NCBI GenBank assembly: GCA_963555985.3
Contig: OY820591.1
Coordinates: forward strand, 128,001-192,000
Direction of reading: 5' to 3'
From: Dehalococcoidia bacterium
GTDB lineage: Bacteria > Chloroflexota > Dehalococcoidia > Bin125
Length of the DNA stretch: 64,000 bases
Part shown: positions 2,041 to 33,867 of the stretch, piece by piece
How positions within the stretch are numbered: the stretch's first letter is position 1
Layout: the number at the start of each line of letters is the position of its first letter
The notes under the pieces: model-generated
What the model saw: only the letters and a program-made list of their open reading frames with translations
Told to the model about the DNA's origin: nothing
Database searches by the model: none
Position numbers and translations under genes: made by a program

Positions 2041-2140
2041 CGAACGCGCGATCCTCAGCGCTCAACAGGAGATCCGCTCAATCCCTCCGAAATTCTCCCG
2101 CCAAACAGCGCCGACACACTTCGCGCAGTGTGAACACGTC

Positions 2141-2632: not shown

Positions 2633-2701
2633 GATTCCTCCGTCCGCGTTCGCCCAGGCGATAGTATCGGGCAAGATTGCAGCGCTTGCAGGAGGACCGT
2701 C

Positions 2702-3520
2702 ATGAGCACACCGATCCGCGTCCACGTCGTCGCCGGAGGATTCCCGCCCGGCAAACACGCCGGACATGACATCGACTACGCGCGGATGCGCATCCTGATG
2801 GCGTTGCAGTCGAACGAGGACGTGCACACCACCGTGAGCAGCGACTTCAGCGACTGCCACAAGTGGATCCGCGACGCTCACCTGCTGATCTGCTATGTGG
2901 CGGGGCCGTTCGCGGACGAGTACCAGACCGGCATAATCCGCGACTGGCTTGGCGAGGGCGGTCGCTGGCTGGCGCTGCACGGGAGCACCGGCGGCAAGGC
3001 CGAGCGCATCGGCCGCGACGACAACCGGCGACGCCTCGTCAAGATGGACTACCACGAGGCGCTAGGCGGATTCTTCATGACTCACCCGCCGATCCGCGAG
3101 ATGGACGTCAAGGTCTCCGACCACAACCACCCGCTCACCTACAACCTGCCCAACAACTTCCCAGTCCAGGACGAGCCCTACATGGTCGAGGTGATCCACC
3201 CCGACACGCAGGTGTTGCTGACCACCGAAGACATCGAGTCGCCGCCTTACGTCGAGGAGATCTACGGCGGCGACCTCTCGCTCTTGCCCGACGGCAAGTC
3301 GCACGCGCTCGGTTTCGCTCGCAAGGTCGGGGAGGGCGAAGTCGCCTACATCGCGCCGGGCCACTGCCACACGCCGCTGACCAACGGCCAGCGATCGGTG
3401 CATGAGAGCATCTCGCCGGACGGCAGCGTGCCGCTGCACTTCCGCGGTCCGTGGGAGACCGACGCTTACGAGCAACTGCTGAAGAATGCGATCGACTGGG
3501 GCACGGGGGTCAATGGGTAG
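2702..3520 (+). CDS. ThuA-like domain protein
   Basis: GGRWLALHG, GGFFMTHPP, DEPY, YIAPGH pattern. Confidence 0.75.
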   Translation: MSTPIRVHVVAGGFPPGKHAGHDIDYARMRILMALQSNEDVHTTVSSDFSDCHKWIRDAHLLICYVAGPFADEYQTGIIRDWLGEGGRWLALHGSTGGKAERIGRDDNRRRLVKMDYHEALGGFFMTHPPIREMDVKVSDHNHPLTYNLPNNFPVQDEPYMVEVIHPDTQVLLTTEDIESPPYVEEIYGGDLSLLPDGKSHALGFARKVGEGEVAYIAPGHCHTPLTNGQRSVHESISPDGSVPLHFRGPWETDAYEQLLKNAIDWGTGVNG

Positions 3521-3565
3521 CGCAGCCGACTGCCCAGGTGGCGGCATTCGATGTACAATGACTGA

Positions 3566-3642
3566 GCACATTTGCAGAGGCGCTTAGGCATCGAGCCGAA
3601 CGCCGCACCCTACGGCCGCTTTCGGGCGGTCGTAGTCGTTTC
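3566..3642 (+). ncRNA. Putative DUF3800-associated structured RNA / terminator-like leader
   Basis: TACAAT -10 at 3554-3559; hairpin 3579-3604; 11-bp stem with UUCG loop 3610-3635 followed by UCGUUU. Confidence 0.55.
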
Positions 3643-3650
3643 ACACTCCT

Positions 3651-4475
3651 ATGTACGTTTGCTACGTCGACGAGTCAGGTGGGTTTGAGGCGCCGAATTC
3701 GGGAAGCGGCGCAACGCCGCTGATGGTGATCGCTGGGTTGATCGTCCCGGCAACGGCCATTTCTGCGATGACTGAGGATCTTCTGTTCTTGAACCGCGAA
3801 TTTTACCCGAACCGAACGTCGCGGAGACTCGACGATGTTCTGCTGGAGATCAAAGGGTCGGCGCTTCGCGCGCAGGCTCGCTCAGACCGGCGCCGCAGCC
3901 GGCGACATGCGATTCAGCTCCTCGATCGCATTGTTGGACTCCTAGAGCGGCATGAAGTCCGGCTGTTGGGCCGCGTATGGATCAAAGAGCCAACCGAGGG
4001 GCTGGAGCCGCGAGCGACCTATACATTCTCGATTCAAGACATCGCAAGGCACTTCAACCACTTTTTGGAGGCGCAGGATTCAGAGGGCATCATCTTGTGC
4101 GACAGCAGAAGGCACGCCCAAGACGTCCAGGTCGCGCACTCCATCTTTACCCAGAAGCACAAGGCTTCCGGAGATGAGTTTCCTCGCCTCATCGAACCGG
4201 TCGTGTTCGGCCGAAGTGAGAATCATGCCGGCCTGCAGATCGCGGATATCGTGGCATCAAGCCTGCTCTTCCCGATCGGGGCGCGCGTGTATTGCAGCCA
4301 AGAGACAGGCGGAGTCCACTCGGATCCGAGATTTGACGACCTTCGCCTGAGATACTCCTCCCGCCTGGGCGCTCGCCGGTATCTCTACGTTGATTCCGCC
4401 GGGAAGACGCGGGGCGGTGTGGTAGTCAGCGACAGACTGACCAGAAAACCGTCCGGGTTACTCTTTCGGTTGTGA
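3651..4475 (+). CDS. DUF3800 domain protein (RNase H-like fold)
   Basis: N-terminal YVDESG, EIKGS, C-terminal LQIADIVA; less GC-biased codons than neighbours. Confidence 0.85.
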   Translation: MYVCYVDESGGFEAPNSGSGATPLMVIAGLIVPATAISAMTEDLLFLNREFYPNRTSRRLDDVLLEIKGSALRAQARSDRRRSRRHAIQLLDRIVGLLERHEVRLLGRVWIKEPTEGLEPRATYTFSIQDIARHFNHFLEAQDSEGIILCDSRRHAQDVQVAHSIFTQKHKASGDEFPRLIEPVVFGRSENHAGLQIADIVASSLLFPIGARVYCSQETGGVHSDPRFDDLRLRYSSRLGARRYLYVDSAGKTRGGVVVSDRLTRKPSGLLFRL

Positions 4476-4586
4476 TCGCAGCGAATTGCATCCCGTAGCC
4501 TGCCTTTGGCTCGAACAGAGGCGCAATCAGGACTCCCGCCCAATCATGATCCCTCCGATTCCCACACACCCGAACAGACCCGACCC

Positions 4587-6089
4587 ATGACCACCAACGC
4601 CGACCTCGAACACCTCGCCGAACTCCGCCGCCGCCGCGACGAATTCTTCGCACCCAATCCTGACGCCGAAGAACGCGCGCACGGACGCGGACTCCTCACC
4701 GCCAACGAGCGAATCAACCTGCTGCTCGATCCCGGCAGCCAGTGGGCGTTCGGCTACGGCCTGGGACCAACTCCGCTGCAGCTGGGCTTCGGCGAGATTC
4801 ACGGCCGGCCGGTGCTCTACAAGGCGCACGACGCGTCCGGCGGCGTAGGCGCGTACAACCTGCGCTCGCGGGTCAACATGCGCGCCGTCGGACACATCGT
4901 CGACAAGGCCGCCCTGCCCATGTTCTACCTCTTCCAGGGCGCGGGTGGACAGATCGAGGACCACATCATGTCCTCGGGTTTCTCCGCCGTCGGCGGCCAG
5001 AACGTCGGTGCCCGCTCCAGCGTGCCCCGACGCGGCGGCGTCTATACCGCCATCCTCGGCAACTCGTTCGCTCCTTGGGCCGCGTCGGTCGCCGACTTCT
5101 CGGTGATGACCCCACGCGCCACGGCGACTTTCGTTAGTCCCTTCATCATCGAGTTCGCCACCGGCAAACGCCCCGATCTCTACGAGATGGGCGGCGTCGA
5201 CGTCCATACCAAGCTCACGGGACAGATCTGCCGACGCGCCGAGGACGAAGCCGAGGCGATGGAAACGCTCCGCACCTGCTTCTCCTATCTCCCCGGCCAC
5301 GCCTTCGAGTCCGCCCCCCGCGTCATGTCCGGCGACCCCAAGGATCGCTGTGACGAAGAGCTGCGCACGCTGGTACCGAAGTATCCCAACCGTCCCTATG
5401 AAGTGCGCAAGATCATCGAGCGGGTCGTCGACCGCGACAGCTTCTTCGAGTGGCAGCCCGAGTTCGGCATGAACCTGGTCACGGGCTTCGCCCGCCTGGA
5501 CGGGCACACAGTCGCGATCATGGCGAATCAGCCCAGAGTGCGCGGCGGCGCGATCGACATGAACGCCTTAATCAAGGCGCGGCGCATGGTCAAGACCGCC
5601 CGAACCTTCTCTCTGCCGCTACTTACCTTCTGCGACACGCCGGGAATCATGACCACGCAGGAAGAAGAACACAAAGGGCTGCTGACCGAGACCACGATCT
5701 ACATCTCCGAGAAGATGGCCTCAGAGGTACAGACCGTCTGCGTCACGCTGGGCAAAGGCATCGGCATGGGCTACTTCATCATGGGCGGCAGCGATCCGGA
5801 GGCGATCACGCTCTCCTGGCCGACGACCCAGATCGCTTATCTGGGACCGGAAGGCGGCGCGGCGGTCGTGTATCGCAAGGCCTTGGCTGCGGCAGAGCCG
5901 GACGACCATCGCCGATTGCTCGACGAACTGGCCGAGCCCTTCCGCCGCAACATGAACCCCTGGCGCGGCGCTCAGATGGCCACGATCGACAACATCATCG
6001 ATCCCGTAGAGACGCGACCGCGCGTGATTCAGGCGTTTGAAGCCCTGCGCCGCAGATCAACTCACCGGGGACGTGGAGGACGCAGATGA
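4587..6089 (+). CDS. Divergent acyl-CoA carboxylase carboxyltransferase (beta-like) subunit
   Basis: LTANERINLLLD, VTGFARLDG, ANQP..GGAID, DTPG, IIDPVETR. Confidence 0.85.
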   Translation: MTTNADLEHLAELRRRRDEFFAPNPDAEERAHGRGLLTANERINLLLDPGSQWAFGYGLGPTPLQLGFGEIHGRPVLYKAHDASGGVGAYNLRSRVNMRAVGHIVDKAALPMFYLFQGAGGQIEDHIMSSGFSAVGGQNVGARSSVPRRGGVYTAILGNSFAPWAASVADFSVMTPRATATFVSPFIIEFATGKRPDLYEMGGVDVHTKLTGQICRRAEDEAEAMETLRTCFSYLPGHAFESAPRVMSGDPKDRCDEELRTLVPKYPNRPYEVRKIIERVVDRDSFFEWQPEFGMNLVTGFARLDGHTVAIMANQPRVRGGAIDMNALIKARRMVKTARTFSLPLLTFCDTPGIMTTQEEEHKGLLTETTIYISEKMASEVQTVCVTLGKGIGMGYFIMGGSDPEAITLSWPTTQIAYLGPEGGAAVVYRKALAAAEPDDHRRLLDELAEPFRRNMNPWRGAQMATIDNIIDPVETRPRVIQAFEALRRRSTHRGRGGRR

Positions 6090-7519
6090 CCACCCGACCA
6101 AAACGACACATCAGCCCCGAGAAGAACCTGACCATGGAGCAGCGGCTCCAGCGGGTTGATGCGGAACGGGCGCGTATTGAGTCGTTCGACCGCGACCGCG
6201 AATTGCAGCCGGGTCAGCTCACGCCGCGCGAGCGGATCGCCGCGCTGGTCGACGCGGGCACGTTCCTCGAAATCGGCGCGTTCGCCAAGAGCCAGCATCG
6301 TGAGGCGGCGGCGCAGACGCCCGCCGACGGCGTGATCACGGGCTATGCCGAGATCGGCGGTCGCCGCGTCATCGTTCTGGCCGAGGATCCGGTTGCGCTG
6401 GCTCGCACCGATGCGCAGGTGGGTAAGGTCAAGCGCAACCGGATGCTCTCCAGCGCGGTCTACCGCCGCTTGCCGCTGGTCTATCTGGCCGACGGCACGC
6501 CTGAGGAGTCGCCCGAGTTCGACATGCACCGGGGCTACCTGCTCAGCCGCGTGGCGGAGCAGGCGCCCGCCCGCGACATCGCCGAGCGTGAAGCGCCGTT
6601 CGTGACGATTGCCTTCGGCCTGTGCGCTGGCCAGAACGGATCGCTGGCGGTGCGCTCCGACCTGCTGATCGCCACGCCGGCGGCGCGTCTGGGCGGACTG
6701 GGCGGCTCGCCGGAGAGCATCGCCGACCTGGTCTGCGACGACGAGTCCGGCGCGATCGCCAGCGCGCGACGGTTCCTGAGCACTGTTCCCGAAGAGCTCG
6801 ACACACCGCTAGCGCCGCTCAGCGATACGCCGGCGGCGCCGATCCGCGTCCTCGCGGAGGAGGAGCTGTCGGCGACGCCGCGCGAGCAGTTCGAAGCCAT
6901 CTTTGACTTCGAGGGAGCAGTCCTGCTCAGTCCGGCGGACGGGAACTGCTTTGTGGGTCTGGGCCGGATTAGGGGTTTTCCAGTCGCGTTCGCCTTGACC
7001 GGCGGTTCGCCTCGTCCGGCGCTCAACACAGCCGACATGAAACGGATCGCCCGCGCTGCGAGCTGGAGCGCTAACTACCAGATCCCCTTCTTCTCAACTC
7101 AGGACACGCTCGGTTACGACCCGCATGACGCAGCGACACCGGAGTTCATGCACGCCGCTGCGCGCGCGGTGGAGTCGTTGCGGGCGTCGCACGCAGCCAA
7201 GATCACGATCATCACCGGCTGGGGCTACATGCTGGGCGATTTCGCCCTGGGCGGAATGGGTACCGGCTTCGATCTGCTCTGGTGCTGGCCCTCGGGCCGG
7301 GTGGGCGTGACCGAGAGTCCGGGCTACCTGGCTCGTGATCCGGATTCGCCGCCTGCCGATGATCCCTGGTCGGCGGCGGAGCTGGGCATCGTCTCGGAGA
7401 TGCTCACGCCTGCGGATACTCGCGATTGGCTGGTGCGGGCGCTGCGGCTGATTGGTCCGGGGCGGGCGCTGCCCGCTGCCCACTACGATCGCGGCCAGCA
7501 GATCCACGACATGACCTGA
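6086..7519 (+). CDS. Highly divergent carboxyltransferase-domain protein
   Basis: LTPRERIAALVDAGTFLEIG, PADGVITG; ATGA overlap with previous gene. Confidence 0.75.
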   Translation: MTTRPKRHISPEKNLTMEQRLQRVDAERARIESFDRDRELQPGQLTPRERIAALVDAGTFLEIGAFAKSQHREAAAQTPADGVITGYAEIGGRRVIVLAEDPVALARTDAQVGKVKRNRMLSSAVYRRLPLVYLADGTPEESPEFDMHRGYLLSRVAEQAPARDIAEREAPFVTIAFGLCAGQNGSLAVRSDLLIATPAARLGGLGGSPESIADLVCDDESGAIASARRFLSTVPEELDTPLAPLSDTPAAPIRVLAEEELSATPREQFEAIFDFEGAVLLSPADGNCFVGLGRIRGFPVAFALTGGSPRPALNTADMKRIARAASWSANYQIPFFSTQDTLGYDPHDAATPEFMHAAARAVESLRASHAAKITIITGWGYMLGDFALGGMGTGFDLLWCWPSGRVGVTESPGYLARDPDSPPADDPWSAAELGIVSEMLTPADTRDWLVRALRLIGPGRALPAAHYDRGQQIHDMT

Positions 7520-9232: not shown

Positions 9233-9328
9233 CGTTAGCTCCTTGCGCACGGGCGAGCGCTGTTGAGTTTTGGCCGAGTCTACGCGCTGGAGCTTGCAAC
9301 CGTGCGGCCGAGCGCCCACAATCGCCAC

Positions 9329-10612
9329 ATGACTACACCAACCACCGAAGAACTGCTGGCCCGCCGCGAACGACTGCTCGGGACGGGCATCGCCACGTTC
9401 TACCAATACCCGGTCCACATCGTGCGCGGCGAAGGCGTCTGGCTCTATGACGCCGAGGGACGGCGCTACCTCGACCTCTACAACAACGTGCCCTGCGTGG
9501 GGCACGCGCACCCCCATGTGGTCGAGGCAATGCGGCGCCAGACCGAGACGCTCAACGTTCATGCGCGCTACCTGCACGAGGGCATCCTCGACTATGCGGA
9601 GCGCTTGACGGGGCTGCACGCGGACCCGATCACGACTGCGGTCTTCACCTGTAGCGGCACCGAGGCCAACGAAGTCGCGATCCTGATGGCCCGCGCCGCC
9701 ACCGAGGGACGCGGGCTGATCCACACCGACGGCGCCTACCACGGCAACTCAACCGAGGTGCGCAAGCTCTCGCGGCTGCGCGGCGAAGACGAGCGGGAGA
9801 TCCGCTCGATCCCGGTCCCACAGCACTACCGCGCGATCGCTGATGAGCTTGAAGGCGAGGCCCTGACCGACGCATACCTCGCCCGTCTGCAAGCCGAGAT
9901 CGACGGCTTCGCCGAAGACGGCGTGCCCTTCGCGGGCGTGATCTTCTGCTCGATCCTCGCCAACGAGGGTCTGCCTGACATCCCACCGAACTTCATGGCT
10001 CGCGCGGCAGACCTGGTGCATGAGGCCGGCGGGTTGTTCATCTGCGACGAGGTGCAGGCCGGCTTCGCCCGCAGCGGTCGCTGGTGGGGCTACGAGACCT
10101 CCGGCGTAGTGCCCGACATCGTCAGCATGGGCAAGCCGATGGGGAACGGCCTGCCGCTGGCGGGAGTGGTCGCCTCGCAGGAGTTGGTCAACACCTTCCG
10201 CGCCAAGACGCACTACTTCAACACGTTTGCCTCCAGTCCCTTGCAGGCCGCGGTCGGACAAGCCGTGATCGACGTGATCGAACAGGAGGGCCTGGTCGAG
10301 AGCGTCGCCTCCGTGGGCGCCTACGTGCGCGACGGATTGCGGGCCATCCAGGAGCACTGCGAGCCGATGGCCGAGGTGCGCGGACCGGGACTGTTCATCG
10401 GGGTTGAGTGGGTTAAGGATCGTCAGAGCAAAGAGCCGGATCGCACGGGCGCATACGAGATCGTCAACCGCATGAGGCAGGCAGGCTTCCTGATGGGCCA
10501 ATCCGGGGAGCACGGCAACGTGCTCAAGCTGCGGCCTCCGCTGGTCTTGCAGCGGGAACACGCCGACCTGTTCCTCGAAGCGTTCGAGACCGCCGTCGCC
10601 ACGCCCGTCTGA
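9329..10612 (+). CDS. Class-III PLP aminotransferase / phospho-lyase-like (AGXT2L type)
   Basis: YLDLYNNVPCVGH, CSGTEANE, DEVQAGFAR, MGKPMGNG, NVLKLRPPL. Confidence 0.9.
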   Translation: MTTPTTEELLARRERLLGTGIATFYQYPVHIVRGEGVWLYDAEGRRYLDLYNNVPCVGHAHPHVVEAMRRQTETLNVHARYLHEGILDYAERLTGLHADPITTAVFTCSGTEANEVAILMARAATEGRGLIHTDGAYHGNSTEVRKLSRLRGEDEREIRSIPVPQHYRAIADELEGEALTDAYLARLQAEIDGFAEDGVPFAGVIFCSILANEGLPDIPPNFMARAADLVHEAGGLFICDEVQAGFARSGRWWGYETSGVVPDIVSMGKPMGNGLPLAGVVASQELVNTFRAKTHYFNTFASSPLQAAVGQAVIDVIEQEGLVESVASVGAYVRDGLRAIQEHCEPMAEVRGPGLFIGVEWVKDRQSKEPDRTGAYEIVNRMRQAGFLMGQSGEHGNVLKLRPPLVLQREHADLFLEAFETAVATPV

Positions 10613-10626
10613 GCCCACATAGAACT

Positions 10627-10745
10627 CCGTCATACCCGCGCTCCGTCGCGGAGCCTGTCTCCGTCCTGTGGGATATCTCACTGTCCAGAGCACCGCCGTC
10701 GCGCGCAGATCGAGATTGCCGCGGCGGGGCACGGCAATGACGGAG
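10627..10745. repeat. REPIN-like paired GTCAT palindromes
   Basis: CCGTCATACCCGCG...GAGATTGCCGCG...GGCAATGACGG. Confidence 0.8.
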
Positions 10746-10772
10746 GGGGGCGATCTTTGTAAGGATCCGTCA

Positions 10773-11774
10773 ATGCCTGAGCCGACCAATCTCAGCGACG
10801 CTGAGCTGCGGACAATCGCGGAGCGCGCCCTGCCCTACTGGGGACTCAAGCCCGAAGCAATCGAGCTCGTCTCGCGCAGCGAGAACACCGTCTACCGGCT
10901 CGACATGCCCAGCGGCAATCGCTACGCGCTGCGCATCCACCGTCCCGGCTACCACACGCTGCCCGAGCTCGAGTCGGAGCTGCTCTGGACGCAGGCGCTC
11001 AACGACGCCGGCATCAGCGTCCCGGTCGGCGTGAGAACATTGGACGGCCCCGGCTACGCCACCATTCCCACGCCCGACGGGAAGTCGTCGCGGGCGGTTG
11101 GACTGGTCGAGTGGATCGACGGCGAAATCCTCGGCCCCTCACTGCAAGGTGAGACCGACGCAGAGCGGATCGTCCCCCACTTCGAGCAGATGGGCCGCAT
11201 CGCGGCGGCGATGAACAATCAAGCCACCGTTTGGACACCACCGGATGGATTCACGCGGCACGCCTTCGATGTGCCGGGTTACGTGGGCGAAGCGCCGTTC
11301 TGGGGCCGGTTCTGGGATATTCCCCCGGTGCAACCCGCTCAGCGCCGGATGCTCGGTCGCGCCCGCGAGCAGATCCGCGGCATCCTCAGCGACTACGGCA
11401 AGGATCGCGGCACCTATTCGATGATCCACGCCGACCTCCACCTCCACAACATCCTCGTCGCCGACGACGGCTCCCTGCACGTGATCGACTTCGACGACGC
11501 CGGTTTTGGCTGGCACCAGTACGACTTCGCCACCGCCTTGTTCGGTTACGACGATCAGCCCTACTTCGACGCCATCCAGGACGCCATGATTCGCGGCTAC
11601 CGCACCGTGAGGCCGTTCGGCGACGAAGGGGTCTCGTTGCTGCCGCTGTTCCTGCTGATCCGTCGCCTCGTCCTGATCAGCTGGCAGTGGGATCGTCCCG
11701 AACTCGGTCGGAGAGAGGGTCTGGAGGCCTACATCGCGGATGCCTGCGAGCGGGTGGAGGCGTTTGGGTTCTGA
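10773..11774 (+). CDS. APH/homoserine-kinase-II-like phosphotransferase
   Basis: SENTVY, LRIHRPG, IHADLHLHN, VIDFDD. Confidence 0.88.
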   Translation: MPEPTNLSDAELRTIAERALPYWGLKPEAIELVSRSENTVYRLDMPSGNRYALRIHRPGYHTLPELESELLWTQALNDAGISVPVGVRTLDGPGYATIPTPDGKSSRAVGLVEWIDGEILGPSLQGETDAERIVPHFEQMGRIAAAMNNQATVWTPPDGFTRHAFDVPGYVGEAPFWGRFWDIPPVQPAQRRMLGRAREQIRGILSDYGKDRGTYSMIHADLHLHNILVADDGSLHVIDFDDAGFGWHQYDFATALFGYDDQPYFDAIQDAMIRGYRTVRPFGDEGVSLLPLFLLIRRLVLISWQWDRPELGRREGLEAYIADACERVEAFGF

Positions 11775-12481: not shown

Positions 12482-12920
12482 CAGCACCATCACCGCAGAC
12501 GAGCAGGGCGTGATGATCGAGCGCATCTTCGACGCGCCGCCCGAGCTCGTCTGGCGCGCCTGGACCGAAGCCGAGCATTTTGCTCGCTGGTATGGCCCCG
12601 ACGGGTTCACCGTGCCCGAATGCGAGATCGACTTCCGCGTCGGCGGCAGCTACTCCCTCACAATGCACTCGCCCGACGGCTGGGAGGTGAAGAACACCGG
12701 CGTCTACCGCGAGATCGTCCCGAACGAGCGCTTCGTCGCCACGATGGCGGCGGACATGCACGAAGAGACTGTGCTCACGGTCGCGCTCGAAGATCTGGGC
12801 GACGGCCGCACCAAGCTGACCATGCGCCAAGACGGCTGGGCAAACGCGGACATGGCCGCCGGCGCCGGCGGGGGCTGGTCGCAGGCGCTTGAGAAGCTGG
12901 CTGCGGAGTTGGCGCGTTAG
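12468..12920 (+). CDS. SRPBCC/AHSA1 domain protein
   Basis: IERIFDAPPELVWRAWT, DFRVGG, GW..ALEKL. Confidence 0.9.
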   Translation: MTTANSTITADEQGVMIERIFDAPPELVWRAWTEAEHFARWYGPDGFTVPECEIDFRVGGSYSLTMHSPDGWEVKNTGVYREIVPNERFVATMAADMHEETVLTVALEDLGDGRTKLTMRQDGWANADMAAGAGGGWSQALEKLAAELAR

Positions 12921-12990
12921 GAGCGCCGAATCCTGCGTCGATCCGTATACGACTGGTTACGCTGCAAGCAGTCTCGGAGAGGACGGCGCG

Positions 12991-13221
12991 ATGTGCTGGA
13001 AAGACCGAATTGAGCTGAACCCCGACGTGTTGGTCGGCAAGCCGATCATCAAAGGCACGCGCATCTCGGTTGAGTTTGTCATTCAGCTGCTCGCCGACGA
13101 CCTGTCCGTCGACGACGTCCTCGAGAACTACCCCCACCTCTGCCGCGAGGATGTACTTGCCTGTCTCAGCTATGCGAGTCACTGGCTGCAAACCGAGCGC
13201 GTCTACCCGCTCAAGACATAG
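12991..13221 (+). CDS. DUF433 antitoxin
   Basis: GKPIIKGTRISV..YPHL..EDV.ACL.YA. Confidence 0.9.
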   Translation: MCWKDRIELNPDVLVGKPIIKGTRISVEFVIQLLADDLSVDDVLENYPHLCREDVLACLSYASHWLQTERVYPLKT

Positions 13222-13227
13222 CCGCGC

Positions 13228-13590
13228 ATGAGAGTCCTCGCCGACGAAAACATCTGGCCGGGCGCCGTTGACGCGTTGCGTATGCGCGGAGACGATGTGG
13301 CCTGGGTGCTCCAGGATGCACCTGGCACGATCGACGAAGAGGTACTGGCCCGAGCGGGCAGAGAACGGCGCCTGTTGATCACAGCCGACAAAGGCTTCGG
13401 AGACTTGGTCTTCGTACGGTTGTTGCCCGCAGACCACGGCGTCATCTTGATCCGGACCGAAGGCCCGCTTGACTTTCGAACCGCTCGATTGCTTGAGACG
13501 ATCAACATGCGCGAAGACTGGAGCGGCCTGTTCGCATCGGTCGGCGACACCAGCGTACGCATACGGCCAGTACCGCCGTCGAGCGCCTGA
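13228..13590 (+). CDS. DUF5615 PIN-like toxin
   Basis: VLADEN, DEEVL..A, LITADKGFG; adjacent to DUF433. Confidence 0.88.
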   Translation: MRVLADENIWPGAVDALRMRGDDVAWVLQDAPGTIDEEVLARAGRERRLLITADKGFGDLVFVRLLPADHGVILIRTEGPLDFRTARLLETINMREDWSGLFASVGDTSVRIRPVPPSSA

Positions 13591-13649: not shown

Positions 13650-16600
13650 ATGCCCATCACCAAGCTCCTGGTCGCCAATCGCGGCGAAATTGCGATCCGC
13701 ATCATCCGCGCCGCGCGCGAACTGGGGCTGGACTCCATTGCCATTCACTCGCAGGACGACGCGAGCTCGCTCCACGTGCGCCGCGCGGACGAGGCGATCG
13801 CGCTCGAAGGCGTCGGCGCGCGAGCATACCTCGATGTCGAGGCCGTAATCGATGCGGTCAAGTCCTCAGGCTGCGACGCACTCCACCCGGGCTACGGCTT
13901 CCTCGCCGAGAGCGCGGAACTGGCGCGGCGCTGTGAGCAGGAAGGCATCACCTTCGCCGGACCGACCGTCGCTTCGCTCGAACTGTTCGGCGACAAGGCG
14001 CGCGCGCGGGCGCTGGCGGCGGAGCATGACGTGCCGGTTCTACCGGGCAGCGCCGGAGCAGTTGATCTGGCCGGAGCCGCCGCATTCTTCGACTCGCTCG
14101 GCGACGGCGGCGCGATGATCATCAAAGCGATCGCTGGAGGCGGCGGCCGCGGGATGCGCATGGTCACGGCGGCCGATCAGCTTGAGGAGGCGTTCGAGCG
14201 CTGCCAATCCGAAGCCGCCGCCGCCTTCGGCAACGGAGCAGTCCTGGTCGAGCGCCTGATGACCCGCGCCCGCCACGTCGAAGTCCAGATCATCGGCGAC
14301 GGAACCGGCGCGGTCTCCCACCTCGGCGAACGCGAGTGCAGCTTGCAGCGGCGTCATCAGAAGGTCGTCGAATGGGCGCCCAGCCCGTCGATCAGCGCAG
14401 AGACGCGCGAGCGACTGACCGCCTCCGCCGTACGCATAGCGGCTGCGGCGAACTACCGCACCCTGGGCACGTTCGAGTTCCTCGTCAACGGCAATGACGA
14501 GCGCGATTTCTCCTTCATTGAGGCGAATCCGCGACTCCAAGTCGAACACACCGTGACCGAGGAGGTCACCGGCGTCGATCTGGTGCGAGCGCAGCTACGA
14601 ATCGCTGGCGGCCAAAGCCTTGCCGAGGTCGGCCTGGCCCAAGACAACGTGCCCGCCGCGCGCGGTTACGCGATCCAGGCGCGGGTCAACATGGAGCGGA
14701 TGGAGCCGAGCGGCGAGGTGCGGCCCTCGGGCGGGATGCTGACCACCTTCGAGCCGCCCTCGGGTCCGGGCGTGCGCGTGGACACCTACGGCTACCCGGG
14801 CTACACGACCAACCCCAACTTCGACTCGCTGCTGGCGAAAGTGATCGCATACTCCGCCTCGTCCGACTTCGGCGATGCCGTGACGCGGGCGCAGCGAGCG
14901 CTAGCCGAGTTCCGAATCGAGGGCGTCGAAGCCAATCTGCCCTTCCTCGAACGAGCCCTGGCTCACGGCGACTTCGCCGCAGGCGAGATCTACACCCGCT
15001 GGGTCGATGACCAGATCGCCGATCTGGCAGCGCCCGCGACATCCGGCGCGGCTTCCCAGAATGGCGCAGCCGATCTCGCCGCCGGACTGGCGGGAGCGCA
15101 ACTGGATACCCGCGATCCGCTGGCTGGACTGAATTACTTCCGCGAAGGCTCAGGTACCAGAGCGCAGCAGGCGGTCGCAACCGTCGCGCCGGGCACGCAG
15201 CCCACACCCCAGATCGCCGGACCGCCGGGCACCGAGCCGGTGCGCTCGCCCTTGCAAGGCACGATCATCCAGATTCTCGTGGAAGAGGGCGACGCAGTGC
15301 GCGAGGGTCAGCAGATGTTCGTGATGGACTCCATGAAGATGGAGCACGTGATCAACTCCGACCTGGGCGGCTACCTGCGCCAGCTCACGGTCGCAGTCGG
15401 CGATGTGGTCTATGAGGGACATCCGCTCGCCTTCATCGAAGCGGCGGACGTCGGCGATGCGATCCGCGAAGAAGTCGCCGAGATCGACCTCGACTACATC
15501 CGCCCCGACCTGCAAAAGCTGCTCGACAATCTCGCCGCCGGCAAGGACGAGAACCGCCAACCATGGGTCGAGCGCCGACACGCCAAAGGCAAGCTCACCC
15601 AGCGCGAGAGCCTGGCCGAACTGGTCGATGAGGGCAGTTGGGTCGAGCTGGGCGAACTGGTCCTGCCCGCCCGCCACCGGATCATGTCGATCGAGGAGAT
15701 GCGCGTGCGCGCTCCCGCCGACGGCATGATCACCGGCATCGGCACCGTCAACGGCAACCTCTTCGACGAACACCGCGCGACCACCCTGGTGGCGATGTAC
15801 GACGAAACGGTCTGGGCCGGCACCCAGGGGATGATGGGTCACCAGAAGACCGACCGGATCATCAAGTTCGCCGACGAGCAGGCGACGCCCCTAATCGTCT
15901 GGGCCGAGGGCGCAGGCGGACGCTCCGGCGACACCGACTTCGGCGACATCTCCGCCGCCGGTCAGTGGGTGCCGACCTACGACATGATGGCGCGGATCAG
16001 CGGCACCGTCCCGATGATCGGGATCACCGCCGGCCGCACCTTCGCCGGCAACGCCTCAATCCTCGGCATCACCGACTGCATCATCGCCACCCGCGACGCC
16101 AACATCGGCATGGGCGGCCCCGCCACAATCGAGGGCGGCGGTCTCGGTCTGTTCACGCCCGAAGAGATCGGCCCGATGTCCGATCTCGGCCCCGCCGGCA
16201 GCGTCGACATCCTCGTCGACGATGAGCACGAAGCCATCGCCGCCGCCAAGCAGTACCTCTCCTACTTCCAGGGCTCGATCCCAAGCTGGGACTGCGTCGA
16301 CCAACGCCTCCTGCGCCACGCCATCCCCGAAAACCGCAAGCGACCCTTCAGCGTGCGCAAGGTGATCGAGCAGATGGCGGACATCGACTCCGTACTGGAG
16401 TTACGCGCCGAATTCGGCGTCGGCATCATCACCTCGCTGATCCGGATCGAGGGCCACCCGATCGGCGTGATCGCGAACAACAACGAGCACCTCGGCGGCG
16501 CGGTCGACAGCCCCGGCGCGGACAAGCTCTGCCGCTTCGCCCAGCTCTGCGACTGCTTCAACATCCCCATCCTCGTCCTGGTCGACACGACCGGCATGAT

Positions 16601-17060
16601 GGTCGGCCCCGATGTCGAGCGCACCGGCCTCGCCCGCAAGTGCAATAACGTCTTCGTCACGTTGGCCAACGCTCAGTCGCCGCGCTTCACAGTGATCCTG
16701 CGCAAGTCCTACGGACTGGCCGCGCAAGCGATGATGACCGGCAGCTCGCGCGCCCCGCTCTTCGCCCTTGCCTGGCCGACCGCCGAACTGGGCGGCATGA
16801 ACCTCGAAGCGGCAATCCGGTTGGGCAACCGAGCCGAGTTGGAGGCGATCGAGGACATCGAGCAACGTGCTGCCCGCTATGAGGCGCTGGTTGCCAACGC
16901 CTATTGGAGGGGCAACGCGATCAACTCCGCCTCCGTCCACGAAAACGACGGCGTGATCGACCCCGCCGAAACCCGCCGCTGGATCGTCCGAGGCCTGATG
17001 GCCTGCGAAAACCCCGAACCAATCCGCCGCGGCCGCCGCCCCAACATCGACACCTGGTAG
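13650..17060 (+). CDS. Single-chain biotin-dependent acyl-CoA carboxylase (BC-BCCP-CT fusion)
   Basis: ANRGEIA, HPGYGFLAE, GGGGRGM, RLQVEH; SMKME biotin site; C-terminal CT domains. Confidence 0.93.
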   Translation: MPITKLLVANRGEIAIRIIRAARELGLDSIAIHSQDDASSLHVRRADEAIALEGVGARAYLDVEAVIDAVKSSGCDALHPGYGFLAESAELARRCEQEGITFAGPTVASLELFGDKARARALAAEHDVPVLPGSAGAVDLAGAAAFFDSLGDGGAMIIKAIAGGGGRGMRMVTAADQLEEAFERCQSEAAAAFGNGAVLVERLMTRARHVEVQIIGDGTGAVSHLGERECSLQRRHQKVVEWAPSPSISAETRERLTASAVRIAAAANYRTLGTFEFLVNGNDERDFSFIEANPRLQVEHTVTEEVTGVDLVRAQLRIAGGQSLAEVGLAQDNVPAARGYAIQARVNMERMEPSGEVRPSGGMLTTFEPPSGPGVRVDTYGYPGYTTNPNFDSLLAKVIAYSASSDFGDAVTRAQRALAEFRIEGVEANLPFLERALAHGDFAAGEIYTRWVDDQIADLAAPATSGAASQNGAADLAAGLAGAQLDTRDPLAGLNYFREGSGTRAQQAVATVAPGTQPTPQIAGPPGTEPVRSPLQGTIIQILVEEGDAVREGQQMFVMDSMKMEHVINSDLGGYLRQLTVAVGDVVYEGHPLAFIEAADVGDAIREEVAEIDLDYIRPDLQKLLDNLAAGKDENRQPWVERRHAKGKLTQRESLAELVDEGSWVELGELVLPARHRIMSIEEMRVRAPADGMITGIGTVNGNLFDEHRATTLVAMYDETVWAGTQGMMGHQKTDRIIKFADEQATPLIVWAEGAGGRSGDTDFGDISAAGQWVPTYDMMARISGTVPMIGITAGRTFAGNASILGITDCIIATRDANIGMGGPATIEGGGLGLFTPEEIGPMSDLGPAGSVDILVDDEHEAIAAAKQYLSYFQGSIPSWDCVDQRLLRHAIPENRKRPFSVRKVIEQMADIDSVLELRAEFGVGIITSLIRIEGHPIGVIANNNEHLGGAVDSPGADKLCRFAQLCDCFNIPILVLVDTTGMMVGPDVERTGLARKCNNVFVTLANAQSPRFTVILRKSYGLAAQAMMTGSSRAPLFALAWPTAELGGMNLEAAIRLGNRAELEAIEDIEQRAARYEALVANAYWRGNAINSASVHENDGVIDPAETRRWIVRGLMACENPEPIRRGRRPNIDTW

Positions 17061-17198
17061 AGACCAATCACAACATCGCCCCTCTCCTCTGCACCCTCAC
17101 CGTCATACCCGAGCTTGCCGCAGACAGGTTGAACTGCACAGCGAGCGGGCGTAGGGTCAGCCCCAGACCTGAGTGGATGCAGCGCGAGGAGTCAAGCA

Positions 17199-18368
17199 AT
17201 GTCTGAACAACCGTCGGGCGACGCGATGCTGCGCGAACGCATCGGCCAAATGCCCGTGCCCGAATTCGCCGAAACCGCCTGGACTACGCCGCCCCCGCTC
17301 TCCGAGGCGCGCGTCGCAGTCGTCACCTCTGCCGCTCTTTACCCGCGCGACGGCGACGCCTTCATCCCCGGCGACACCAGCTACCGCGCGCTCGATCCCG
17401 CCGTGCGTGAGCTGGTGCTGGGCCACTGGAGTCCGAACTTCGACCGCTCCGCCTTCGCAATCGACTACAACGTGGTCTATCCGCTCGCTCGCCTGGACGA
17501 ACTGGCCGAACAGGGCGTCATCGGATCAGTCGCCTCGAAGCACTACTCGTTCGCGGGCAATCAGCCCGACGATGTGGCCACCGTCCGGCTCGATTCCGGT
17601 CCGGCCTGCGCCGCCGAGCTCAAGGCCGACGGCGTGGACGTCGTGCTGCTGACACCGGTTTGACCGCTCTGTACTCGTACCGTGTGTACGCTCGCCCACG
17701 TCTTCGAGGCAGCCGGCCTCACCACCGTCACGATCTCCGCCATTCGCCGCGTCCCCGAGCGCATGCGCCCGCCCCGCGTCCTGCACGGCGAGTTCCCGCT
17801 CGGACGACCGCTGGGCAAGCCCAACGATCCCGACTTCCAGCACGATGTCCTCCGCCGCGCCTTCGCGCTGCTCGAGCGCGACGCCGGCCCCGTGCTCGAA
17901 GACCACCCGGAGACCATCGTCGCCGACGAAGAGCCGCTCAGTTGCACCGTCCCACCGCGCTTCGATCCCGATCTCGCGCCCGCCGTCGATGAGGCTGGCG
18001 GTCTGCGCAAGGCCTACGACCGCGCGCTCGCGCGGCGCGGTGTCAGCAATGTCGGCCGCGCCGTCGACGCCGACGGCGTCCCCGCCGCGCTTGACGTCCT
18101 CCAGCAGATCGTCGATGGCACGCCCTGGAAGACAGCCGGCATCCCGGGCGGCAACACCATGGCTATCGCCCACGACATCCGCTCCTACTACGAGGAGGCC
18201 GCGCTAGAGCTCACCGACGCGCCCAACCCGGGCGGTCGCCAGGCCGAAGCCTGGTTCTTCGAGCGCACCGAAGCCGGCAAGCTGATGCTCGCCGTCCGCA
18301 AAGCCCTCGCCGCACAGGGCGCCCCACAAGGAGTTTGGTTCTACATGGCCCCAGGCCACCGCAGCTAA
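17199..18368 (+). CDS. PrdB/GrdB-like selenoprotein (Sec at UGA 17661-17663, UxxC), 389 aa
   Basis: ORFs 17199-17663 and 17682-18368 are in one frame: VLLTPV-U-PLCTRTV; family motifs on both sides; hairpin 17 nt after the UGA. Confidence 0.85.
17676..17690 (+). promoter_or_regulatory. Putative bacterial SECIS hairpin
   Basis: CGTAC-CGTGT-GTACG stem-loop; G at loop position 2; loop starts 17 nt after the UGA. Confidence 0.6.
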
Positions 18369-18400
18369 CCGCCCTCCCTTCGAGAGAGGCTGTCTCGCGG

Positions 18401-18563
18401 GAGACCTGTGCGCAAATCAAACACCGTCGTCGCGCACGCGGCGAGATTGCCGCGGCGGAGCGCGGCAATGACGGAGCCGGGCGGTTCCCATCTCCCCCCG
18501 CACTGCGGGGGGAGAAGTCACGAAGTGCCTGCCCCCGCGTAGGCGGGGGACAGAGGGGGGTCC
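18401..18563. repeat. Composite repeat: partial MITE/GTCAT palindrome plus CCCCC-type palindrome
   Basis: GAGACCTGTGCGCAAAT...GGCAATGACGG; TCTCCCCCCGCACTGCGGGGGGAGA...GACAGAGGGGGG. Confidence 0.75.
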
Positions 18564-18585
18564 GCCCACCTGAGAGGGAGCTCCG

Positions 18586-19575
18586 ATGACGCTCCGAATC
18601 GGCATCCTCGGAGCCGCCAACATCACCCCCCGCTCACTGATCGCGCCGGCGGCGGCGATGGACGACATCGAACTCGTCTGCGTCGCCGCCCGCGACCGCA
18701 ACCGCGCCGAGCGCTTCGCCGCCGAACACGGCATCCCCGTCGTCCACGACCGCTACGAGGAGGTAGTCGCCGATCCGGGGATCGACGCCGTCTACAACCC
18801 GCTCCCGATCAGCGGGCACAAGCCCTGGACCATCGCCGCGCTCGAAGCCGGCAAGCATGTCCTTTGCGAGAAGCCGCTGGCGATGAACGAGGCTGAGGCG
18901 CAGGAGATCGCCGATACCGCCCGCCGCACCGGACTGGTCTGCATCGAGGGCTTCCACTACTGGTATCACCCGGTGGCGTACCGAATGCGCGAACTCGTGC
19001 AGAGCGGCCGGCTGGGCAACGTGCTCTCAGCCGATGCCCATTTCCAGAACACCGCCCCGGACACGCCTACCCAGATCCGCTACCGAATCGAGCTGGGCGG
19101 CGGCGCGACGATGGACTTGGGCTGCTATCCGCTGCACATGCTCCGTCACATCTTCCAGGCCGAGCCGGAGGTGGTCAGCGCCCGCCCGGAGATCGTCTAC
19201 GACACCATCGATGTGGCGATGGAGATCGATCTGCGCTTCCCCGGAGACATCCCCGCCCAAGCCAAGTGCCGCATGTCGCCCGGCACGCCGCGCTCTGTCG
19301 AGGTCGTCGTCATCGGCGAGACTGGGCGGATGCGCGTGGTCGATCCGCTCACACCCCATCGCGGCCACCGAATCGAACTGGAGACAGAGTTCGGCCGAGT
19401 AGTCGAAACGCTCACGCTCCGCCCTACCTTCGAGTTCCAACTACAAGCGTTCGCCAATCAGATCGCGGGCGGCGAACCAATGCCCACCGACGCCGACGAC
19501 GGCGTGATCAGCATGAGAGTGATCGACAACGTCTACCGCGCAGCCGGCCTGCCCCTGCGCGGCAATCTGGAATAG
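18586..19575 (+). CDS. Gfo/Idh/MocA oxidoreductase
   Basis: IGILGAANI, GKHVLCEKP, GGATMDLGCY. Confidence 0.92.
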   Translation: MTLRIGILGAANITPRSLIAPAAAMDDIELVCVAARDRNRAERFAAEHGIPVVHDRYEEVVADPGIDAVYNPLPISGHKPWTIAALEAGKHVLCEKPLAMNEAEAQEIADTARRTGLVCIEGFHYWYHPVAYRMRELVQSGRLGNVLSADAHFQNTAPDTPTQIRYRIELGGGATMDLGCYPLHMLRHIFQAEPEVVSARPEIVYDTIDVAMEIDLRFPGDIPAQAKCRMSPGTPRSVEVVVIGETGRMRVVDPLTPHRGHRIELETEFGRVVETLTLRPTFEFQLQAFANQIAGGEPMPTDADDGVISMRVIDNVYRAAGLPLRGNLE

Positions 19576-29211: not shown

Positions 29212-30213
29212 GTGCCCCCGATCCTCAGCATCTCCGACCTCAGCATCGAGTACCGCACCCGCGAGGGTCCGGTCCGCGCCGTGCGCAACGCCTCCCTCGA
29301 ACTCGAACGCGGACAGATCGTCGCCCTCGTCGGCGAGAGCGGCTCCGGCAAAACCACGCTCGGACTCAGCATCCTCCGCATCCTGCCCCGCAACGCTGCC
29401 GTCACCAGCGGCGAAATCCACTACCAACGCCAGAACATCGCCGAACTGAGCCGCGAGGAATTGCAGCGCATTCGCGGCGACCAGATCTCAATGATCTTCC
29501 AGGACCCGATCGCCGGCCTGAACCCAATTATCTCGGTCGGTCAACAAGTCGAAGAAGTAATCACCTCGCACCGCCCCGTCGATAAGAAGGAAGCCCGCGC
29601 CCGCGCCCTCGATGCGCTCGCCGCCATGCAACTGCCCGACCCCAAGCGAATCGCCAAAGCCTACCCCGGCGAACTCTCCGGCGGCATGTGCCAGCGCATC
29701 ATGATCGCCATCGCCACCGCCCTCGATCCGCAGGTTTTGATCGCCGACGAACCCACCGCCTCACTCGACGTCACCGTCCAGGCCCAGATCCTCTACGAAC
29801 TCGAGCGCCTGCGCGACGAGCGCGGCACCGCAATCCTGCTGATTACGCACGACATGGGCGTCGTCGCCCAGATCGCCGAGCGCGTCGCCATCATCTACGC
29901 CGGGCGGATGATGGAGATCGACGAGATCATCCCGCTCTACCGCGAGCCGCGCCATCCCTACACCTGGGCCCTGCTCGACACCCTGCCCCGGCTCGACCGC
30001 CGCCGCCGCTCACGCCTCACTCAAATCCCCGGCACACTCCCCGACCTCGCCGACACCGAAATCGGCGAGCACTGCGCCTATCTCGCCCGCTGCCCCAAAG
30101 CTCTCACCCAGTGCCGCACCGATCCCGAACCCGAACTGACCCACGTCCCCGGCGGACGCATTGGTCAACGGCTCGCCTGCTACAACCCGGTCGAAGTGGT
30201 CAACGCCGTCTAG
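29212..30213 (+). CDS. Oligopeptide/dipeptide ABC ATP-binding protein (DppD/OppD-like)
   Basis: [22 protein letters not shown]-terminal Cys cluster. Confidence 0.93.
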
Positions 30214-31207
30214 ACCGTCCGCCGCTCGCCCCCGCCAGTTCCGCCACCAACAATTCCACCGCCACATTCTCCGGCAACCCGCCCTCTCCCCGGCGGTAGT
30301 CGATGATCGCCGTCTCCGCCTCCAAAATTCTCGCCAGCGCCCCATCCGCCGACGCCTGCGTATACGCCTGCGCCTGCCGGCGCATTCGCCGCGCCAGCCA
30401 CTCGAAGTTCGTCTTCAGCGCCGCCTGAATCTCCTGGTCTCGCCCGCCCGAATCCAGCACTTCGCGCGTAACAATGATCTGCCGGTACTGCCGCGCCAGC
30501 ATCTGCATAATCCGCTGCTCCGATTCGCCCTCCGCCCGTACCCCCTCCAACGCCTGCATCGCCGTCGCCAGCCGACCCTCCGCCACCGCGTCGACCAGAT
30601 TGAAGATCGTGACCGAGCGCATCGCCGGCGTCATCGTCTCCACCAGCGCCTCGTCAATCTGAGCATCGCCCGCATACAACGCCAACTTCTCCAACGCCTG
30701 CGTCAGCCCTCCCCGATCACCCCCGGTCCGATCCACCAACATCCGCGCCGCGTTCATGCTCAGATGCAACCCTCGAGTTCGCACTTCCCCCCGCAGCCAC
30801 TCCAACGCCTGCTCAGGCTTCAGCCGCGCAAACTCCTGCACCTCCACATACGGCTCAATCAGCTGCCGCAGCGGATTATTCCGCCGCAACCGATCATCCA
30901 CGAACACCAACACCGTCGAAGCCGGAATCCCTTGCAACAGATCGTCAAGCTGCGCCCATTCCCCAATCCCCCGCCGTCCGCCCTGCTCAAACCGCCCCAA
31001 CAACCCATCTACTCGAACCCAGCGGATATCCCCCAAAAACGGAGCCGCCGAAGCCGCCCCCGCAAGCTCCCCAAGCGTCACCCGCTGCCCCTCAAACGAG
31101 ACCGAGTTGTTGCCCAGCGAACCGTCTGAGTCAAGCGAAGCCCGAAGCTGAGCCACCGCCTCAAGCCGAGCAAAACGATCCTCGCCAAAAATCAGATAAG
31201 CCGGCAT
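30200..31207 (-). CDS. holA: DNA polymerase III delta subunit
   Basis: YLIFGED, APFLG, LEKLALY, IFNLVDAV, LARQYR. Confidence 0.85.
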   Translation of the reverse strand: MPAYLIFGEDRFARLEAVAQLRASLDSDGSLGNNSVSFEGQRVTLGELAGAASAAPFLGDIRWVRVDGLLGRFEQGGRRGIGEWAQLDDLLQGIPASTVLVFVDDRLRRNNPLRQLIEPYVEVQEFARLKPEQALEWLRGEVRTRGLHLSMNAARMLVDRTGGDRGGLTQALEKLALYAGDAQIDEALVETMTPAMRSVTIFNLVDAVAEGRLATAMQALEGVRAEGESEQRIMQMLARQYRQIIVTREVLDSGGRDQEIQAALKTNFEWLARRMRRQAQAYTQASADGALARILEAETAIIDYRRGEGGLPENVAVELLVAELAGASGGRSRRR

Positions 31208-31262
31208 CCCCTCCACTCTAAACAGACCAACCCCCCAACAGAAAGCTCACCCCAAAAGAGCT

Positions 31263-31462
31263 CCGTCATACCCGCGCTCCGCCGCGGGTATCTCGCCGTG
31301 ACCAGCCCCCAACCCTCATCCCACCTCCCCAAAATCTCCCCCTTGAGGGGGAGATGCCCCGTAGGGGCAGAGGGGGTGAAACGCCACACCCAGCACAGAC
31401 GCCCTGCACCTCCCTCCCCGCCCCCACTTCCGTCATACCCGCGCTCCGTCGCGGGTATCTCG
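31263..31462. repeat. Repeat cluster: two GTCAT palindromes flanking a CCCCC-type palindrome
   Basis: CCGTCATACCCGCGCTCCGYCGCGGGTATCTCGCCGTGACCAGC x2; ATCTCCCCCTTGAGGGGGAGATG. Confidence 0.85.
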
Positions 31463-31581
31463 CCGTGACCAGCACCCAACCTTCCGACAACCGCAACACA
31501 CCATCGGTTTGCAACCCGAACATCAGAACATATAAACTCACCTATCCAAAACACAGGTTCCCAAGAAAGGAACACCCCACC

Positions 31582-31950
31582 ATGCCCTTCGACTACACCT
31601 ACCAGTCCAGCATGACCGGCGTCGGCCAACTCGCCCACTCCAACGAAGCCGGCCACGTCCGCATCAAAGCGCTCGCCCTCCTCATCCGCGAACTCTCCCC
31701 CTCCAACTCCAAGAGCCGCGAGATCCACCACGCGCTCGACATCCCACCACATCCCGAACCCGCGCCCAAACCCCGAGCCAACCACTCTCCCCGCCTGCCC
31801 GAAGCTCCGCTCACTCCCGAGCAGAAGAAGGACTTCCACCTCCACCCGATGTTCGAGATCTACGACGAAGTCGTCGCCTTCATGCGCGGCGAAGACGTGC
31901 CCCTGCTGGACGACGACGACAGCCTCGAAGAAGAGGAAGAGCCGCAGTAA
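31582..31950 (+). CDS. Hypothetical protein with acidic tail
   Basis: AAGGA RBS and coding-like codon usage. Confidence 0.55.
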   Translation: MPFDYTYQSSMTGVGQLAHSNEAGHVRIKALALLIRELSPSNSKSREIHHALDIPPHPEPAPKPRANHSPRLPEAPLTPEQKKDFHLHPMFEIYDEVVAFMRGEDVPLLDDDDSLEEEEEPQ

Positions 31951-32135
31951 TCCCCCGACCGCAAGCGGCAAACCCAACCTCGTTTTTTTCTCACAGCCCC
32001 CGCGAGGCCGCGAACCGCGACCGCCCAGTCCCTACCGTGCCCTGCGTTACACACGCTCCCCCCGTTCACACGACCGCCGCCTGCGTAAACCGGTATGCAA
32101 CAGCTGCGGACAAGCCGGACGCCGAGGAGACTCGC

Positions 32136-33764: not shown

Positions 33765-33867
33765 CCAACCATGGCCCGCCTCCCCTCCTCCGTCCGCGTT
33801 GACAGCTGCCTAGACTGCGCTCACCCCGCGATTCGCGCAGCCAGGCACATCCCCGAGGAGAGCCAAG

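Follow-up and report, generated by a model that had tools for sequence, protein, structure and literature searches.

Two adjacent gene calls in the window (the whole 64-kb stretch of DNA analysed) raise the question of whether they are in fact one gene, and, if so, what the single in-frame TGA between them encodes and what kind of enzyme results. Under translation table 11 the calls are two same-frame ORFs, 17199..17663 (154 aa) and 17682..18368 (228 aa), the second starting at a GTG that 18 nt separate from the TGA. Once the TGA is read as U, the product has 389 residues, with U155 (17661-17663) as the sole recoded codon, in the translated context LLTPV-U-PLC-TRTVC. This read-through translation bears out what an earlier sequence-only reading of the DNA had claimed, namely that the two ORFs are one frame interrupted by a single TGA. 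The intergenic gaps are 138 nt to the upstream gene and 217 nt to the next gene. We conclude that the two calls are one gene, whose internal TGA most likely encodes selenocysteine (Sec), with the following parts.

17186..17191, + strand: Shine-Dalgarno-like GAGGAG, 7 nt 5' of the ATG, recognised by sequence inspection only.
17199..18368, + strand: full coding sequence of 389 codons plus a TAA stop, with one in-frame TGA; homologs of ~380-400 aa align with it end to end.
17661..17663, + strand: TGA codon 155, the proposed selenocysteine; TGA in 81/81 sequences, Cys in 87/105 spanning homologs.
17670..17672, + strand: codon for Cys158, the partner in U-x-x-C; invariant in two homolog alignments, Cys in 104/105.

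AlphaFold2 folded the read-through protein into one compact model (pLDDT 95.5, pTM 0.93), with an alpha/beta core to residue 239, a loop at residues 240-260 that carries Cys249, and helices at residues 261-383. U155 lies in this model between the strand 148-152 and the helix 158-171, with Cys158 at the start of the helix. Modelled alone, the C-terminal domain was predicted with a pLDDT of 94.7. The three landmarks of this layout map to the DNA as follows.

17253..17873, + strand: PrdB/GrdB-like alpha/beta core, residues ~19-225, from TIGR04483, Pfam GRDB, BLASTP and the AlphaFold2 model.
17943..17945, + strand: codon for Cys249, in a P-L-x-C-x-h-P-P motif of the inter-domain loop; invariant in one homolog alignment and at least 90% conserved in another.
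17979..18347, + strand: family-specific all-helical C-terminal domain, residues 261-383, from the AlphaFold2 models (pLDDT 95.5 and 94.7).

The core can be placed in a known superfamily. Its BLASTP alignment with P0248, a true PrdB of 241 aa found among our search matches, covers residues 19-222 at 34% identity, sets U155/C158 (U-P-L-C) against C-G-T-C of P0248, and so puts Sec155 on the active-site Cys of that protein; the blocks F-D-x-S ... D-x-N ... P-x-D-R-L and P-R ... P-x-G ... G-x-P are shared as well. Pfam GRDB (PF07355) matches residues 18-152 at 29.5 bits (gathering score 22), through profile positions 206-345 of 347 only. The GrdB-type NCBIfam models (TIGR01917, TIGR01918, NF040794 and NF040795) all score below their cut-offs (score/cut-off 49.6/65.45, 37.6/602, 49.1/800 and 49.4/775). 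GrdB, GrdF and GrdH belong to the same superfamily and have the U-x-x-C in common with the window protein, which corresponds to the C-terminal half of the GrdB profile only. The PrdB/GrdB-like core with U-x-x-C that had been called from the sequence is confirmed by TIGR04483, by GRDB and by the P0248 alignment.

This likeness invites the reading that the gene encodes a genuine D-proline reductase B subunit whose PrdA proprotein has its gene at another place in the genome: its active site can be aligned with that of true PrdB, TIGR04483 (PrdB) is the best NCBIfam match (E 2.3e-33, residues 24-225), JGI labels homologs 'D-proline reductase (dithiol) PrdB', and the selenoproteome papers discussed below file the family under PrdB. 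The match to TIGR04483 is, however, one of 115.6 bits where the curated cut-off is 300 bits and P0248 reaches 453.2. By profile score it is a homolog of true PrdB and not an equivalog.

The architecture differs too. True PrdB and the window protein have a core of ~200 aa in common, at the above 34% identity and with Sec/Cys-x-x-Cys at the same position, but true PrdB is a single-domain protein of ~240 aa that lacks the C-terminal helical domain. On plasmids, true prdB genes show similarity to residues 17-231 and no further; 24 records match, not one of them over 80% or more of the query. Since the matches to P0248 and to plasmid prdB end by about residue 222-231, everything past residue ~226 has no counterpart in PrdB; this extra part runs from residue ~226-240 to 389. 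The extra C-terminal domain noticed in the sequence-only reading is therefore real, although its size, given there as ~130 aa, comes to ~150-165 aa when measured against true PrdB. It is also conserved. Full-length homologs of ~380-400 aa show 46-58% identity over 97-100% of the length (48-58% for those of ~395 aa), occur in Pseudomonadota, Solirubrobacterales, Acidimicrobiia and others, and have in common Cys249, E265, Y331, E333 and W352. When 1.84 billion representative proteins were searched exhaustively, 1893 matched at E up to 0.001 and 85 at E up to 1e-30. The window protein thus shows the marks by which we recognise a long-form family: a U/C-x-x-C core followed by a conserved C-terminal helical domain, in ~380-400 aa. 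Pfam holds no family for the helical domain. Nor did searches of the PDB find a resemblance: the best TM score for the whole model was 0.26, the best E-value for the C-terminal domain was 0.34, and by sequence there were only insignificant glutaredoxin matches (E 0.66-0.86, residues 144-170).

True PrdB depends on the pyruvoyl subunit PrdA and is encoded in a prd operon. The neighbours of the window gene are of another kind. Upstream lies a fused biotin carboxylase-BCCP-carboxyltransferase gene (1136 aa, 13650-17060) and downstream a GFO/IDH/MocA oxidoreductase gene (18586-19575), beyond which come an acyl-CoA dehydrogenase-like gene, an SDR, an enoyl-CoA hydratase and a glyoxalase. None of the 50 window ORFs scanned belongs to the PrdA, GrdA, GrdE or thioredoxin families, as had been claimed from the sequence, and the same ORFs include no grdC or grdD near the gene. 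For relatives we scanned one genome per species and took the closest 80 loci, at 60-83% identity: four from Chloroflexota/Dehalococcoidia (74-83%), one in a record titled Acidobacteria, and the remainder from Actinomycetota, mostly Acidimicrobiia (60-68%). Synteny with the window is limited to the closest Dehalococcoidia relatives, which lack the oxidoreductase gene. The 81 loci yielded 431 ORFs within 4.5 kb, in 302 clusters, by an ORF calling that is crude for such GC-rich DNA. The commonest neighbour clusters were an AMP-binding ligase (15 loci), an enoyl-CoA hydratase (12), an SDR (10) and a sulfatase (9). No Prd, Grd or thioredoxin family appeared among the 49 clusters present in at least two loci, to which the scan was confined (the other 253 are singletons), and likewise no PrdA or Gly_reductase family was found in the window ORFs or in these 49 recurrent clusters. 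Both the C-terminal domain and the lack of such partners had earlier been described as unusual; they turn out to be typical of the family. With score, architecture and neighbourhood all against it, a genuine D-proline reductase B subunit is an improbable identity for this protein.

We also considered taking the function from gene context, and rejected this, there being no conserved partner and the largest neighbour cluster occurring in only 15 of the 81 loci.

We turn to the TGA itself. It stands at codon 155 in 80 of the 80 related loci, and in 81 of 81 sequences when the window is included in the codon alignment. In 79 loci it was found by pattern and in the remaining one, L077, by eye, because the residue there at Arg160 is Leu. 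More distant relatives come from the databases, where we examined 268 proteins: 105 span the site, 21 are N-terminal pieces, 91 are C-terminal pieces and 51 are other fragments. The spanning homologs have Cys at the site in 87 cases, Gly in 5, Ser in 3, Trp in 3, Ala in 2, Arg in 2 and a gap in 3, and the full-length Cys homologs align across the TGA junction without a gap. Cys158 is kept in 104 of these 105, and Cys249 in 84 of the 89 that have a residue at that position. TGA in close relatives with Cys in distant homologs is, as a sequence pattern, the classic signature of a Sec/Cys family, and it answers the call made with the original reading for a comparison of homologs at this codon.

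The partial proteins carry information as well. All 21 N-terminal pieces stop at the site, with residue 154 as the last one in 17 of them, and the 91 C-terminal pieces begin at residues 157-170. Gene callers, by splitting the gene at the TGA, have left this footprint. Such halves make up 53 of the best 120 database matches and 112 of the 268 proteins examined. About one in six spanning homologs, by contrast with the Cys forms, has Gly, Ser, Ala or another residue at 155 and retains Cys158 and Cys249. These 18 of 105 without Cys at the site imply that the first redox residue is dispensable in some members, and any mechanism has to accommodate them.

A Sec codon in bacteria calls for a SECIS element, and the following hairpin lies just 3' of the TGA.

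17671..17695, + strand: SECIS-like hairpin, core stem 17676-17680 / 17686-17690, loop CGUGU at 17681-17685.

The hairpin is 17 nt long, its stem begins 12 nt past the TGA and its loop begins 17 nt past the last base of the TGA, which is where the sequence-only reading had put it; a possible lower stem would pair 17671-17673 with 17692, 17694 and 17695. This spacing of 12 nt and this length of 17 nt presumably resemble those of the minimal E. coli fdhF element. The loop has G at its second position. What is seen is thus a stem-loop just 3' of the TGA with a small G-containing apical loop, and such a loop is given as a common feature of bacterial SECIS elements in the accessible part of PMC1088965.

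For comparative evidence we took 51 nt spanning the TGA in the window and in 79 loci (L077 absent) and aligned them. RNAalifold predicted the same hairpin independently, with a 6-bp stem and a 5-nt loop of C-G-U-G-(A/U/G), plus two outer pairs. At the bottom of the stem the sixth pair (17675/17691) is mismatched (U-C) in the window, alone among the 80 sequences, and the window has the weakest version of the hairpin among them. In the 9-pair version 99.1% of cells are paired; sliding the 3' partner by 1-3 columns lowers this to 1.0-63.4%. At pair 21-31, 36 distinct rows have C-G, 28 have U-A and none is unpaired; the neighbouring pair alternates between G-U and G-C. On a quick protein tree, built without the hairpin codons, the U-A/C-G swap takes five changes, of which the well-supported branches force only one; we therefore count it as one to five events.

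The codons themselves speak more strongly. Over codons +3 to +10 the codon entropy drops to 0.29 bits (mean for the gene 1.23), which no other 8-codon window undercuts, and the seven lowest-entropy windows of this size all fall within codons +1 to +14. Three codons never vary, namely ACC at +6 (81/81), GTG at +7 (81/81) and AGT at +8 (67/67 of the Ser codons). This synonymous constraint is the strongest signal for the hairpin and, as judged from the codon alignment, is a constraint at the level of the RNA. Thermodynamics adds nothing to it. For the 40 nt of the window the folding energy is -4.2 kcal/mol, a value equalled or bettered by 194 of 200 shuffles; three relatives gave z-scores of -0.34 to +0.06, and the 86-nt fold a z of 0.19. 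Neither the 86-nt nor the 40-nt fold being better than shuffles, the case for a SECIS element is a purely comparative one. Rfam gave no match at gathering score over the window, and none at E up to 10 over 17500-17850.

A different decoding of UGA-155 has to be weighed here, as Cys or another standard residue, for instance by a Sec-like tRNA charged with Cys; Mukai et al. are said to have described UGA recoding of this kind in 2016. The Sec machinery itself was not seen in the window: ARAGORN found no tRNA-Sec in the 64-kb window or in the 80 loci, and the SelA, SelB and SelD families are absent from the 50 window ORFs, which represent 64 kb of the genome. The Cys in 87 of 105 homologs would suit Cys decoding, and the Trp at the site in three database entries presumably reflects TGA read under another table. 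A Cys-charged tRNA would, however, leave the hairpin to be explained, since a hairpin of this kind, conserved and with a small G-containing loop, is needed for SelB-dependent insertion, and the family is already listed among Sec proteins with SECIS elements. Nor is the code reassigned, for TGA is an ordinary stop that ends 24 of the 51 gene calls in the window. A scan of the window for genes with an in-frame TGA returned nine candidates, including the gene itself; the candidate TGA sites that were compared with gene calls (35164 and 61665) are junctions of neighbouring genes, and none of the other candidates has a Cys-containing redox motif around its TGA. We give the decoding of UGA-155 as Cys or another standard residue only a slim chance.

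Slimmer still is the chance that the TGA is a real stop and that the locus yields two separate polypeptides, one of 154 aa and one of 228 aa. The full-length Cys homologs cross the junction without a gap; the 18 nt between the TGA and the GTG encode conserved residues, among them the invariant Cys158; and the read-through model is one compact fold, with the TGA just past the strand 148-152. The GTG at 17682 is nevertheless there, and gene callers do predict exactly two ORFs, with the 21 N-terminal and 91 C-terminal database fragments to match. A pseudogene, or a sequencing or assembly error, can be set aside almost completely: a nonsense mutation would indeed look like a single internal stop, but the same TGA in 80 of 80 independent genomes already refutes it, as do the open downstream frame, the high GC3 on either side of the TGA (0.84 and 0.86) and the strong amino-acid conservation.

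We are left with a reading that we hold to be likely: a single gene for a cytoplasmic candidate selenoprotein of ~42 kDa, from the long-form, PrdB-like branch of the GrdB/PrdB superfamily, which would work independently of PrdA. The enzyme function is proposed purely by homology, and would run as follows. SelB with Sec-tRNA would read UGA-155 by way of the downstream hairpin, and Sec155 would join with Cys158 in a selenenylsulfide redox pair. The selenolate would attack an electrophilic atom of a small substrate, as it does in PrdB and GrdB; Cys158 would resolve the adduct, and a general thiol system would re-reduce the Sec155/Cys158 pair. No PrdA-type pyruvoyl subunit would be required, the substrate site probably being supplied by the helical domain and the Cys249 loop. 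The substrate would be a small molecule, and not the D-proline of a Stickland pathway.

The sequence-only reading had proposed a Sec redox enzyme with a non-Stickland role. We find this the most reasonable reading, and we infer it because the protein is not a PrdB equivalog, has a different architecture, lacks a conserved partner and is found in Chloroflexota and Acidimicrobiia; that it is a Stickland proline reductase is improbable. More tentatively, the long form may be a self-contained, single-polypeptide selenoenzyme of mostly aerobic heterotrophs, in which the helical domain and the Cys249 loop would replace the role of PrdA/GrdE; though possible, we consider this doubtful. The Cys249 loop and the helical domain might then serve as a substrate-activating site, or Cys249 as a third redox cysteine. 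We think it quite unlikely that Cys249 undergoes self-processing in the manner of the Cys-derived pyruvoyl of PrdA. The mostly aerobic heterotrophs meant here are the Acidimicrobiia and the Chloroflexota, with Cys forms in Pseudomonadota.

The D-proline reductase whose name the family bears is that of Clostridium sticklandii, reportedly described by Kabisch et al. in 1999, a study that PMC1088965 cites. The family entered the selenoprotein record with the Sargasso Sea selenoproteome of 2005 (Zhang, Fomenko and Gladyshev), in the accessible part of which 'Proline reductase PrdB, UXXC' is the third most abundant family, with 42 genes (PMC1088965). The supplement of that paper lists long-form members as 'Proline reductase PrdB'; 'PVuP' occurs 15 times in it, and one entry shares V-V-L-L-T-P-V-u-P-L-C-T-R-T-V with the window protein. 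The later GOS survey (Zhang and Gladyshev 2008) gives 235 Sec forms and 110 Cys forms in its Table 2 (PMC2398784), and later reviews, in the parts available, have a single row 'D-proline reductase, TIGR04483, UxxC' (PMC9312934, PMC13188914). As far as the accessible parts of PMC1088965 and PMC2398784 go, the family is treated as D-proline reductase and is not separated from the Stickland enzyme.

Judged by eye and by term search, the marine 'Proline reductase PrdB' entries are like the window protein. They have P-V-U-P-x-C-T, F-P-L-G-R-P-L-G and G-P-V-L-x-D-[FY]-P, and a C-terminal extension with a conserved Cys and Y-[YF]-x-E-A ... W-F-W/Y. Nothing essential differs between the two, and what the window adds is a Chloroflexota (Dehalococcoidia-like) member. 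The family is therefore not new, and the window gene is a further member of a catalogued selenoprotein family; the description of it as 'hidden' holds for gene callers, and not for the selenoprotein catalogue, in which the family has stood since 2005. In the literature covered, which excludes subscription journals, no paper came to light in which the long form is set apart from true PrdB or its function is tested.

The window gene and its relatives give a comparative picture of the SECIS hairpin of this family. Because gene callers split the gene, a selenoprotein is under-reported in Chloroflexota and Acidimicrobiia genomes, whose annotations show two 'hypothetical proteins' in its place. The family is named after a Stickland enzyme from which it differs in score, in architecture and in gene context. 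It is also among the commonest selenoproteins of ocean metagenomes, according to the accessible parts of PMC1088965 and PMC2398784. Given this abundance in the sea, identifying the substrate of the long form, should it indeed be a self-contained selenoenzyme, would define a selenium-dependent reaction of oxic habitats.

Upstream of the selenoprotein gene and on the same strand, the window and the loci of the three closest relatives, all Dehalococcoidia (L001, L002 and L003), carry a class-III aminotransferase gene together with an APH-type kinase gene (1512-3810 in L001, 2438-4736 in L002 and 1626-3915 in L003). The neighbouring features of the window are as follows.

4506-7519, two more carboxyltransferase genes
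9263-11774, the aminotransferase/kinase pair, same strand as the selenoprotein gene
12889-13590, DUF433/DUF5615 small gene pair, a toxin-antitoxin-like module
13650-17060, fused biotin carboxylase, BCCP and carboxyltransferase, a single 1136-aa ORF
18369-18585, spacer downstream of the selenoprotein gene, with palindrome hairpins at 18491-18515 and 18529-18550
18586-19575, GFO/IDH/MocA oxidoreductase gene, immediately 3' of the selenoprotein gene

The 1136-aa ORF is a one-chain acyl-CoA carboxylase; ORFs of L001 and L002 are 88% identical to it, and it has no counterpart in L003, where the selenoprotein gene directly adjoins the aminotransferase/kinase pair. The upstream arrangement of class-III aminotransferase and APH-type kinase is not found at the Acidimicrobiia loci. 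On a Haematobacter plasmid (L082), a gene of the class-III aminotransferase fold encoding about 900 aa (2042-4747) is followed by a distant short homolog, and the Roseomonas homolog is not preceded by a gene of this fold. As a clue to the function of the selenoprotein, the aminotransferase/kinase neighbourhood is weak at best.

The oxidoreductase gene has a counterpart at none of the 80 TGA-form loci, the syntenic L001-L003 included. It looks like a local insertion and is therefore no partner of the selenoprotein gene. Much of the 217-nt spacer between the two genes is taken up by the two hairpins of a GC-rich palindrome, CCCCCGC-NNN-GCGGGGG, and no T-run terminator was found. The 64-kb window holds five copies of this palindrome against 0.11 expected (in the spacer and at 33667, 36018, 41945 and 45280), and it looks like a REP-like intergenic repeat.

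Further into the window lie the following genes.

35263-41846, AddAB-like helicase-nuclease genes
42351-43538, minus strand, dnaN
60895-61302, PIN-domain gene, a toxin-antitoxin-like module

In the region of about 30000-44000, which holds the dnaN and AddAB-like genes, the sign of the GC skew flips at about 36-37 kb, the minimum of the cumulative skew; an origin of replication may lie nearby. No dnaA was identified.

Elsewhere, at 5782-7254 of L083 (Roseomonas plasmid p546-2), a short PrdB-like gene, a Cys form, is convergent with a gene annotated as protein adenylyltransferase SelO. Three database homologs (P0222, P0230 and P0237) have Trp at the Sec position; these were probably translated under a code in which TGA is Trp, and may therefore themselves be additional mis-read Sec forms.
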